From an uncultured bacterium (lineage in GTDB: Bacteria > Babelota > Babeliae > Babelales > Babelaceae): a DNA stretch of 64,000 bases. Made by a program: the position numbers and the translations under genes. Every line of letters begins with the position of its first letter. Within the stretch, counting starts at the first letter, position 1. A model generated the notes under the pieces. The model saw nothing but the letters and a program-made list of their open reading frames with translations, was not told the DNA's origin and searched no databases. Shown here in pieces: positions 4,821-6,499 of the stretch. Where the stretch lies: NCBI GenBank assembly GCA_963717435.1, contig OY970332.1:768001-832000 (forward strand), read 5' to 3'.

Positions 4821-5777
4821 TTAAATATTAAAAACAAGCATCAACATAGTAGCACCGAAACAGTATACAGCAGAAGCGTCTATAAAGCCCTGTGTGAGTA
4901 TACTCGACTTTGAAATAAGAGAATAAAGTTCAGGTCTTTTTGCAAGTTGGTTGCACGCAGCAACGGCAGTTTTTCCTGAAGCGATTCCACAACCTAATGG
5001 CCCGATGCCCATTAAAAGTGCCATGGCCAAAAACACAAACGCGCTAATCGGTGTGATATTAAAATTTACAGTTGCTAAAATTGCGCTTGTTATTAGTGAG
5101 AATAAAACAGGAGTTTCGATCATCGCCTGGCTGATAAAAGTAAGAGAAAGAATTTTCGGGTAAGCCAATCTGTTATAGCTGATCCCGTCGTATGCGCTTT
5201 GCGCAAATTTGCTTATCCCAATTAATGGCCCAATAGAACCAAGGCCTATACAGAGCCCGCTAGAAAACAGTTTAACTGCGTCATGTATATTTGTTATAGA
5301 ATTTATTTTGCTTACAATTATTGCCGCCACAATAAATCCAAAAATAAACGAAGTTTGCAAAATCGATAAACTTAGTAGCATTAAGTTTGTTATTTTCTTG
5401 CTCAAAAATGGCTGTCTTGAAATAGCATAAATTGCTCTTTGGGCAGGTTTTACTGAAACCAAACTTGCTGTTAATCCTGTAAAAATTAATGCAGCTGCAA
5501 CGCCCAGTTCAGCAAAAATTGTATATATGTTTGCCGGATTTTTTAAAACAAATAAAAGCGCCATCGATAAAACCATACTTAATACCGCGCAGGTTTCAAG
5601 TAGGCCCATGGCAATTAAAGACAAGGTTCTTAAATCGTTTTTTGCAGCTGGCTGGATATTAATTGCATCAACAGTTGTTGTAGCAATTTCGCCCTGTCCT
5701 TTTGCGACGGCCCAAGAATTAACTATGAGTATAGATAAAATTATTAAGTAGTGAATTAACTGAAAATACTCTGTCAT
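4821..5777 (-). CDS. atpE: F0 ATP synthase subunit c, four fused c hairpins
   Basis: Four ~80-aa two-TM repeats with loops IQP/RQP/YNR/KRP and carboxylate positions E61, Q141, E221, D300; ATGA overlap with atpB. Confidence 0.88.
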   Translation of the reverse strand: MTEYFQLIHYLIILSILIVNSWAVAKGQGEIATTTVDAINIQPAAKNDLRTLSLIAMGLLETCAVLSMVLSMALLFVLKNPANIYTIFAELGVAAALIFTGLTASLVSVKPAQRAIYAISRQPFLSKKITNLMLLSLSILQTSFIFGFIVAAIIVSKINSITNIHDAVKLFSSGLCIGLGSIGPLIGISKFAQSAYDGISYNRLAYPKILSLTFISQAMIETPVLFSLITSAILATVNFNITPISAFVFLAMALLMGIGPLGCGIASGKTAVAACNQLAKRPELYSLISKSSILTQGFIDASAVYCFGATMLMLVFNI

Positions 5778-6499
5778 TTGGGCTCCTCTTGAACAAGTAA
5801 AGCTAAATTGGTTAACGAGATTATTGAGAACACAAATGATTGCAAAAAGCCCTCAAAGATTATAAAAAAAGCGGTAATTATAAACGGGATCCCAAAAATA
5901 GATGTGATTAAGTGCCCTATAACGGACCCTGAAACGGCTTTGTTATACATGGTCACAATAATCGCTCCGCCAAAGATATTACCAAACAATCTAAAAGAGA
6001 GTGACATTATTGTCGCCAGTTCCCCGATTATATTCAAAAATACCATGGGCGCAAATGGCGAAAAATAGTGGTGAATATAAGCATATAGCCCATTTTTCTT
6101 TATAGAAGCAATTTGGATATAAAGAAAAGTTATAATAGCAAGCGCCAGTGTAGTATTGAGGTCTTTTGTGGGTTCTTCAAGTTCAGGAATTAAAGCTATC
6201 CAGTTGCATGCCAGAATAAATAAAAAAATCGAAGTGATAAAACTAAAATAATTAAAAGAGAATTTGCCAACAGACTGCTGGATCATGGTCATGAAGTTTA
6301 TTACTATATTTTTTGTAATAAATCCCGCCACAGTCTCTTTTTTGTATAAAATAAGATACCTGCCCAAAATCCCCAGGGCAAGTAAAATTCCCATGGCGAT
6401 CCAGGTATTGATTAGTGTTTCACTGTTTAATATAGCAAATATGCTTTTTATATTTGCCAGTTGCCACTGGTGCGTCCCAAATATTTGGATGCCTTCCAC
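5774..6499 (-). CDS. atpB: F0 ATP synthase subunit a
   Basis: PTKDLNTTLALA, SLSFRLFGNIFGG (essential Arg) and FLQSFVF motifs. Confidence 0.95.
   Translation of the reverse strand: MEGIQIFGTHQWQLANIKSIFAILNSETLINTWIAMGILLALGILGRYLILYKKETVAGFITKNIVINFMTMIQQSVGKFSFNYFSFITSIFLFILACNWIALIPELEEPTKDLNTTLALAIITFLYIQIASIKKNGLYAYIHHYFSPFAPMVFLNIIGELATIMSLSFRLFGNIFGGAIIVTMYNKAVSGSVIGHLITSIFGIPFIITAFFIIFEGFLQSFVFSIISLTNLALLVQEEPK

Follow-up and report, generated by a model that had tools for sequence, protein, structure and literature searches.

The ion to ATP ratio of an ATP synthase is fixed by the number of ion sites in its c ring, and an F-type c subunit is as a norm one hairpin of ~8 kDa per polypeptide. 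The window analysed here, a stretch of 64,000 nucleotides from the genome of an uncultured bacterium of the Babelaceae, departs from that norm and raises the question of how a rotor could be assembled from a c polypeptide that is 318 residues long and contains four hairpins.

The gene, here called c4 (P0001), lies on the minus strand at 4821..5777, where the plus strand is full of stops. Directly upstream is atpB (5774..6499, minus strand; PF00119), the sole copy in the genome, which encodes a subunit a of 241 residues with R170 kept. The start of c4 and the stop of atpB overlap as ATGA at 5774-5777, and, judged from the sequence only, a Shine-Dalgarno-like AGGAG for c4 (5783..5787, minus strand) lies within the 3' end of atpB, 5 bases ahead of the c4 ATG. 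A search with PF00137 returned four stretches in c4 (E 5.7e-26), the number that the earlier note on this DNA had expected, and when the four hairpins were scored separately in the genome each was above the curated cut-off. AlphaFold2, with a 28-sequence alignment, gave four helical hairpins (pLDDT 93.8, pTM 0.90). Family scores favoured an F-type c, and the top NCBIfam matches were F0F1 subunit c models, all of them under the whole-protein cut-offs. The carboxylate positions are occupied by E61, Q141, E221 and D300, with a spacing of 80/80/79. That note had already proposed the 318-residue frame, its ATGA junction with atpB, these four residues and an F-type c of four fused hairpins, and all of this is borne out, the last by PF00137 and by the F-type gene set that accompanies c4.

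The genome, one contig of 1.198 Mb that is 88.8% complete, also encodes a canonical single-hairpin atpE of 85 residues (c1; G000:C1:228005-228262), in which an inner Gln and ETSSVY make up a full Na+ motif. The c1 gene is ~545 kb from c4 and heads the gene run atpE-b'-b-delta-alpha, where b' matches Desulfosarcina b' (E 2e-9) and b was assigned from its position, having no Pfam match and an E of 0.023 against Desulfosarcina b. In all, the atp genes occupy four loci (G000:C1:225090-228262; 457.6-459.3 kb; 721972-722829; window 4821-6499). A genome search found one copy each of subunit a, alpha, beta and gamma, with one weaker PF00006 match besides F1 alpha and beta; delta and epsilon are also present, and there was no PF01496 match to a V-type subunit I in this 88.8% complete genome. 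With a, alpha, beta and gamma single and the search for a V-type subunit I negative, the gene content is that of one enzyme that has two genes for c.

Three simple assignments of c4 are ruled out by these genes. As a second atpE is present, c4 as the sole c gene forming a homo-ring is excluded as the default, and the homo-oligomeric ring of 4n hairpins put forward in the earlier note, with 9 ions per 12 hairpins, is left unsupported; its arithmetic applies only to the rival with separate homo-rings that is taken up below. The V/A-type c (K) subunits, such as Enterococcus hirae NtpK (2bl2), the eukaryotic V-ATPase c and the multi-hairpin K of methanogens, likewise have fused hairpins and lost sites and match c4 by fold, but their enzyme class differs: the F1 genes here are alpha, beta, gamma, delta and epsilon, subunit a is of the F-type, and no subunit I was found. 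An N-ATPase is an extra ATPase operon without delta that stands beside a normal F-type set; here delta is present and the F1Fo set is single, and c4 as an N-ATPase part is excluded as well.

Some features of the remaining loci were recorded on the way. The beta gene atpD (L128:2367-2600 and 1132-2472; G000:C1 about 457,835-459,300) is in two frames through a frameshift in the assembly, the break being an A-run ~45 codons past the start, near the 5' end; an error of the assembly, slippage or a gene that is truly broken may lie behind it. A gene that by look resembles a deoxynucleoside kinase lies upstream of c1, in two overlapping frames (L001:1836-2604), and at G000:C1:229581-230765 and 230783-231967 there are tandem near-identical ORFs of 394 residues with signal-peptide-like starts. 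In two near-invariant columns of subunit a (5774-6499) the protein of this genome deviates from its family, with F154 where 87 of 88 have Pro and N231 where 82 of 88 have Tyr.

It can be seen from a survey of 151 Dependentiae genomes that both c genes are kept across the phylum alongside a single subunit a, and those c4 homologs that bear names belong to Candidatus Dependentiae. A c4 near full length in one open frame was found in 149 of the 151 (of the other two, one has a partial and one a weak match), and a single-hairpin ORF of 82-136 residues in 150 of the 151 among the matches listed, the best match of the last genome having an E of 4.8e-26. For closer comparison we took 90 c4 sequences, namely the window gene and 89 loci of the 151 genomes (29 best-scoring and 60 picked for spread or pairing). 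In 88 of the 89 loci atpB lies upstream of c4; R170 of subunit a is invariant (88/88), and no single c was found in the fetched c4 loci. When the hairpins were placed in a tree, each c4 hairpin position formed its own clade across the phylum, with hairpin 1 of this genome's c4 on a long branch. As c4 is kept phylum-wide and its hairpin clades are position-specific, an assembly artefact or a chance product is ruled out. The earlier note had named, as one result that would tell against its own reading, a canonical atpE elsewhere that forms the ring combined with a c4 that is not expressed or conserved. The canonical atpE was indeed found; a lack of conservation was not, c4 being conserved throughout the phylum.

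The acids themselves are less constant. The four-position pattern is EQED in 33 of the 90 c4 proteins, EEEE in 22, EQEE in 19 and other in 16; four acids are present in 24, three in 60 and two in 6, and by hairpin 1, 2, 3 and 4 an acid occurs in 90, 27, 84 and 87. With EQED in only 33 of 90, E/Q/E/D as a fixed phylum trait is ruled out; the three active sites of four that the earlier note had inferred are likewise no fixed trait, since all four acids are retained in 24 of these 90. From the way in which the pattern varies between these sequences, the missing carboxylate is a lineage-specific trait. Among 71 single c proteins (this genome's, the 30 best-scoring and 40 picked, of which 20 were the weakest-scoring and 20 were for family spread), 37 have the full Na+ motif, or 48 if one missing ligand is allowed. 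Ligand loss was compared between c1 and c4 in 62 genomes, of which 43 scored in both, 5 in neither and 9 and 5 discordantly; there is no tight pairing, and paired loss between the two proteins was dropped for want of a clear signal in these 62. One genome, G111 (L099/L233), has a degenerate c4 (D/E/S/G) together with a single c without Na+ ligands, and another, G036 (L066/L220), has Asp in the single c and in c4 hairpin 1.

In a c ring the Na+ site is split between neighbours, with the inner Q/E and the carboxylate on one side and S/T and Tyr on the other, as in the structures from I. tartaricus and E. hirae. Within one c sequence the Na+ motif is an inner Q/E together with E[STQ][STQ]xxY, as given in a phylogenomic preprint (bioRxiv 10.64898/2026.10.01.756066). 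The hairpins of c4, all matched on the minus strand, differ in which part of this they hold. Hairpin 1 (5562..5723) has the accepting half-site, formed by the inner Q28 (codon 5694-5696) 33 residues N-terminal of E61 (5595-5597), and is without the Tyr at +5. The Na+ signature that the earlier note had seen in this repeat thus stands as far as the inner Q and the E-T are concerned and fails at +5, where the Tyr is missing; that Tyr is found in repeat 4, as Y305. Hairpin 2 (5316..5507) has Q141 (5355-5357) in place of the carboxylate and an inner S108, and hairpin 3 (5076..5264) has E221 (5115-5117) in E-T-P with an inner I188, a carboxylate without Na+ ligands. Hairpin 4 (4839..5030) has D300 (4878-4880) and Y305 (4863-4865) and corresponds to the donating half-site; in this genome it reads DASAVY, with Ala at +1, and the donor set is incomplete.

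The same polarity is seen across the 90 c4 proteins. For hairpins 1 to 4 in turn, 75, 0, 28 and 0 proteins have the acceptor set, while 0, 0, 0 and 76 have the donor set, with Tyr in hairpin 4 of 88; the internal hairpins have Pro at +2 (85/90 and 83/90) and Tyr is absent from them. No single c4 hairpin has the complete Na+ motif, which c1 of this genome does have, and no internal c4 interface brings acceptor and donor ligands together. On this distribution, the start and the end of the c4 chain are the sole places where a complete Na+ site could form. In 117 other proteins of four to six hairpins the first hairpin is an acceptor in 106 and the last a donor in 117.

We consider it probable, at roughly 65%, that c4 makes up an arc of four hairpins in the rotor and that copies of c1 close a mixed c4+c1 ring; since an ordinary single c also occurs in this genome and in its relatives, c4 and c1 would most likely belong to one rotor. 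Hairpin 1 of c4 would complete a site with the preceding c1, and hairpin 4 would complete the site of the next c1. By analogy with Acetobacterium woodii one c4 per ring is most likely. The c4 arc would hold fewer ions than four c1 subunits, so that the ions per turn would fall at fixed ring size; if a ring of 11 hairpins is assumed, one c4 and seven c1 would provide 10 carboxylates, at most 8 of them with Na+-type ligands, compared with 9 of 12 in the ring of the earlier note.

The closest known rotor is that of A. woodii, an F/V-hybrid Na+ c-ring that consists of 9 single and 1 double c subunit according to PMC9171764; Clostridium aceticum is given in PMC7911925 as having the same two-gene c layout. 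The long subunit of A. woodii (AtpE1, also termed c1; PDB 4bem chain J) was the top PDB match of c4 by sequence (4bem_J, E 5.5e-24) and the best by fold, which upholds it as the closest of the precedents named in the earlier note. In both cases the enzyme is F-type and has one long c gene besides a single-hairpin one, and the chain ends are alike: the first hairpin of AtpE1 has ETSGIF in a Q...ET arrangement, its Q...E[ST] being matched by Q28, E61 and T62 of c4, and the last has QTTGIY with the S/T..Y ligands. The two proteins differ in that c4 has four hairpins rather than two and in where the carboxylate is lost, which is hairpin 2 in c4 and the last hairpin (Gln) in AtpE1, whereas the last hairpin of c4 keeps an acid in 87 of 90. 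The c genes stand at separate loci here and in one operon behind atpB in A. woodii, and the host is an ATP-importing parasite here and an acetogen there. We conclude that c4 is most likely an enlarged version of the Acetobacterium rotor design. An ion-free spacer does not explain c4, however, as acids are kept in hairpins 3 and 4 (84/90 and 87/90), unlike in AtpE1.

Profile searches recovered F-type c proteins of 3, 4, 5 and 6 hairpins outside the Dependentiae, those with names coming mostly from Desulfobacterales/Deltaproteobacteria and one from Margulisiibacteriota. The four-hairpin AtpE of Desulfobacterales, present for example in Desulfosarcina variabilis (L173) and Desulfatibacillum alkenivorans (L202) and called no more than F0 subunit C in the records seen, is like c4 in its length of ~324 residues, its place directly behind atpB, its first and last polarity and an internal x-T-P motif; identity to c4 is 26% over the full length, and that between the subunits a is 37%. 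In the Desulfobacterales the gene order is unsplit, a-c4-c1-b'-b. The 80 best genome loci, nearly all of them titled as Desulfobacterales or delta proteobacteria, have a single c gene immediately after the multi-hairpin one in 78 cases (75 from labels, 3 by reading), the remaining two being one without a single c and one at a contig edge. An upstream gene bears the subunit a label in 72, and two b-sized genes come after the c genes wherever the locus reaches far enough, for instance in Desulfosarcina variabilis. If the two Dependentiae loci are put together, the result is this same order, which in A. woodii also runs atpB, long c, single c. Judged by gene order, the atp set of this genome is an operon of A. 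woodii order, intact in Desulfobacterales and here split between the two c genes. In one Desulfobacteraceae locus (L162) the genes for a and c4 are accompanied by two for a single c, which is the gene count of A. woodii.

The Desulfobacterales proteins also differ from c4. Five- and six-hairpin forms occur among their homologs, and their patterns (n=73) are EQQQ in 43, EQQE in 26, EQEE in 3 and EQEQ in 1; the common patterns of the 117 other multi-hairpin proteins were EQQQQ (66) and EQQQQQ (26), in a search that favours longer forms. By profile scores hairpins 1, 2 and 4 of the Dependentiae and Desulfobacterales c4 match by position and hairpin 3 does not. In the hairpin tree, which had 66 columns, 12 random rows per group and an unsettled bootstrap, the Desulfobacterales repeats lie apart from those of Dependentiae without repeat-by-repeat orthology. 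The four-hairpin forms of the two groups may therefore be separate expansions, and if so the operon analogy is weaker. Two longer proteins were seen as well. P0084 (968 residues; a cluster of 12) has thirteen fused hairpins, all with Glu, and could possibly be a whole F-type ring in one chain; its 91 Trp against 45 Gly suggest an organism that reads TGA as Gly. P0145 (1139 residues, named Promethearchaeota) has fifteen fused hairpins, all with Glu, and is longer than the 13-hairpin Methanopyrus protein.

A predicted complex of c4 and c1 scored 0.77 against 0.00 for the best of 3 controls, with at least 99% of contacts agreeing between runs and a partner pLDDT of 88; of 157 solved pairs 116 attain the mark for this score, as do 2 of 215 mismatched ones, a calibration that is only rough for alignments of the kind used here. 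In the model c1 docks on hairpin 4 of c4, with c4 residues 301, 302 and 305 and c1 residues 31 and 64 in the interface, which agrees with a Na+ site shared between neighbours. The pass may reflect likeness more than binding, and perhaps memory, and it weighs little because solved c-rings contain like c-c contacts.

The end polarity that favours a mixed ring would also fit head-to-tail c4 homo-oligomers, in which hairpin 4 could donate to the acceptor in the next hairpin 1 and so close the ring. On that basis two alternative homo-rings, (c4)n of 8 or 12 hairpins and (c1)n, might be placed on one subunit a and switched by life stage, for example for pumping within the host and synthesis outside, which is the model of the earlier note fitted to the second gene. 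Separate control is possible, with c4 coupled to atpB and c1 placed apart, and single-gene multi-hairpin rotors do exist, among them P0084 and the 13-hairpin Methanopyrus kandleri rotor reported in bioRxiv 10.64898/2026.10.01.756066. Against this, the c genes of Desulfobacterales are adjacent in one cluster, their c4 goes down to 1 acid in 4 and longer forms to 1 in 6, which would make a poor stand-alone rotor, and where a rotor with two types of c has been solved, both are in one mixed ring (PMC9171764). We regard separate homo-rings as improbable.

It is quite unlikely, in our view, that c4 is instead an assembly nucleus or an a-bound accessory, a pre-curved template for the addition of c1 that is released or stays outside the rotating ring and so does not set the ions per ATP. 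The linkage of c4 to atpB and not to c1 (88/89 loci) would suit such a role, as would the c4 loops, which differ by hairpin and lack the usual loop proline in hairpin 3. So would the surroundings of atpB, since no atpI-like ORF was recognised upstream of it within the window, where an aldehyde dehydrogenase gene lies instead; the Desulfosarcina cluster has two small ORFs upstream. The acids at hairpins 1, 3 and 4 are kept (90, 84 and 87 of 90), as are the half-sites at the chain ends, which speaks rather for ion handling in a closed ring. Least probable of all is a mixed ring in which c4 is present twice or in varying numbers (e.g. 2 c4 + 3 c1), where the c4:c1 expression ratio would tune the ions per ATP: the genes, ~545 kb apart, could be expressed separately and both c4 ends are compatible with c1 or another c4, but in A. 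woodii the number of long subunits in a ring is fixed at one (PMC9171764).

On the mixed ring of one c4 with c1, the direction in which the enzyme runs is a further matter. The motor of this energy parasite would mostly burn imported ATP, pumping Na+ or H+, and we think that it is probably run as an ATP-driven pump. The epsilon gene (L128:889-1128) encodes 79 residues that comprise the N-terminal beta-sandwich only, and in all 20 of the fetched relatives (L252-L271) epsilon stops 0-8 residues past the domain match; the C-terminal helices of epsilon normally inhibit ATP hydrolysis. Three TLC ATP/ADP translocase genes are present, and COX1 was not found in this 88.8% complete genome. For TM6, the relevant section of Yeoh et al. 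(PMC4776705) describes the lack of an electron transport chain and suggests that the ATP synthase hydrolyses ATP, with no mention of the c subunit there. The pumping direction that the earlier note had thought likely is in keeping with these features, the missing respiratory chain, the translocases and the short epsilon; it follows from lifestyle and the short epsilon and is not shown by site loss, which that note had also taken as a sign of it. Site loss is no proof of pumping, as the A. woodii enzyme, despite its lost site, makes ATP from 90 mV, a low threshold (PMC9171764), and free-living sulfate reducers, which have 1-3 acids of 4 and 1 of 6 in longer forms, have lost more sites; nor is three of four sites clearly tied to parasitism, given those same sulfate reducers. 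The genome also encodes a membrane pyrophosphatase (G000:C1:670807-672726; L272) carrying GNTTAA, where Ala presumably marks the K+-dependent class, which includes Na+ pumps.

A broader reading, which as a whole we hold to be tentative and rather doubtful, would join several propositions. Two kinds of site would share one ring phylum-wide, Na+-type sites in c1 and hairpin 1 and H+-only carboxylates at E221 and D/E300, so that one motor would pump both ions, and the number of acids in the arc would be set by lineage at two, three or four. Rotor inserts of 3-6 hairpins would be widespread and unrecognised, including those of Desulfobacterales with 3-5 acid-free hairpins in a row; such inserts would tune the ions per ATP at fixed ring size, with the rotor forced across a long torque-free arc.

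We found no paper describing a four-hairpin F-type c, in a search that did not include the review of hybrid rotors by Brandt and Muller (2015), which may list Desulfobacterales cases. The main text of the phylogenomic preprint bioRxiv 10.64898/2026.10.01.756066 mentions multi-hairpin cases in its methods and contains none of the terms Dependentiae, Babel- or Desulfo-, although its supplements may bear on this, and term searches in the available text of PMC2702500, PMC4103992 and PMC5129741 gave nothing relevant. Multi-hairpin c proteins of this length were outside a survey in which ring sizes were studied with AlphaFold, since it left out c sequences of more than 250 residues (bioRxiv 10.1101/2024.02.27.582367).

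In the one solved mixed bacterial ring, that of A. woodii, a single site is absent. If inserts of four to six hairpins are built into the rotors of common sulfate reducers and of an entire phylum that parasitises protists, mixed rotors would be widespread, and bioenergetic estimates made from a single atpE would be wrong for these organisms. How a rotor crosses several empty positions would then be testable in cultured Desulfosarcina or Desulfatibacillum.
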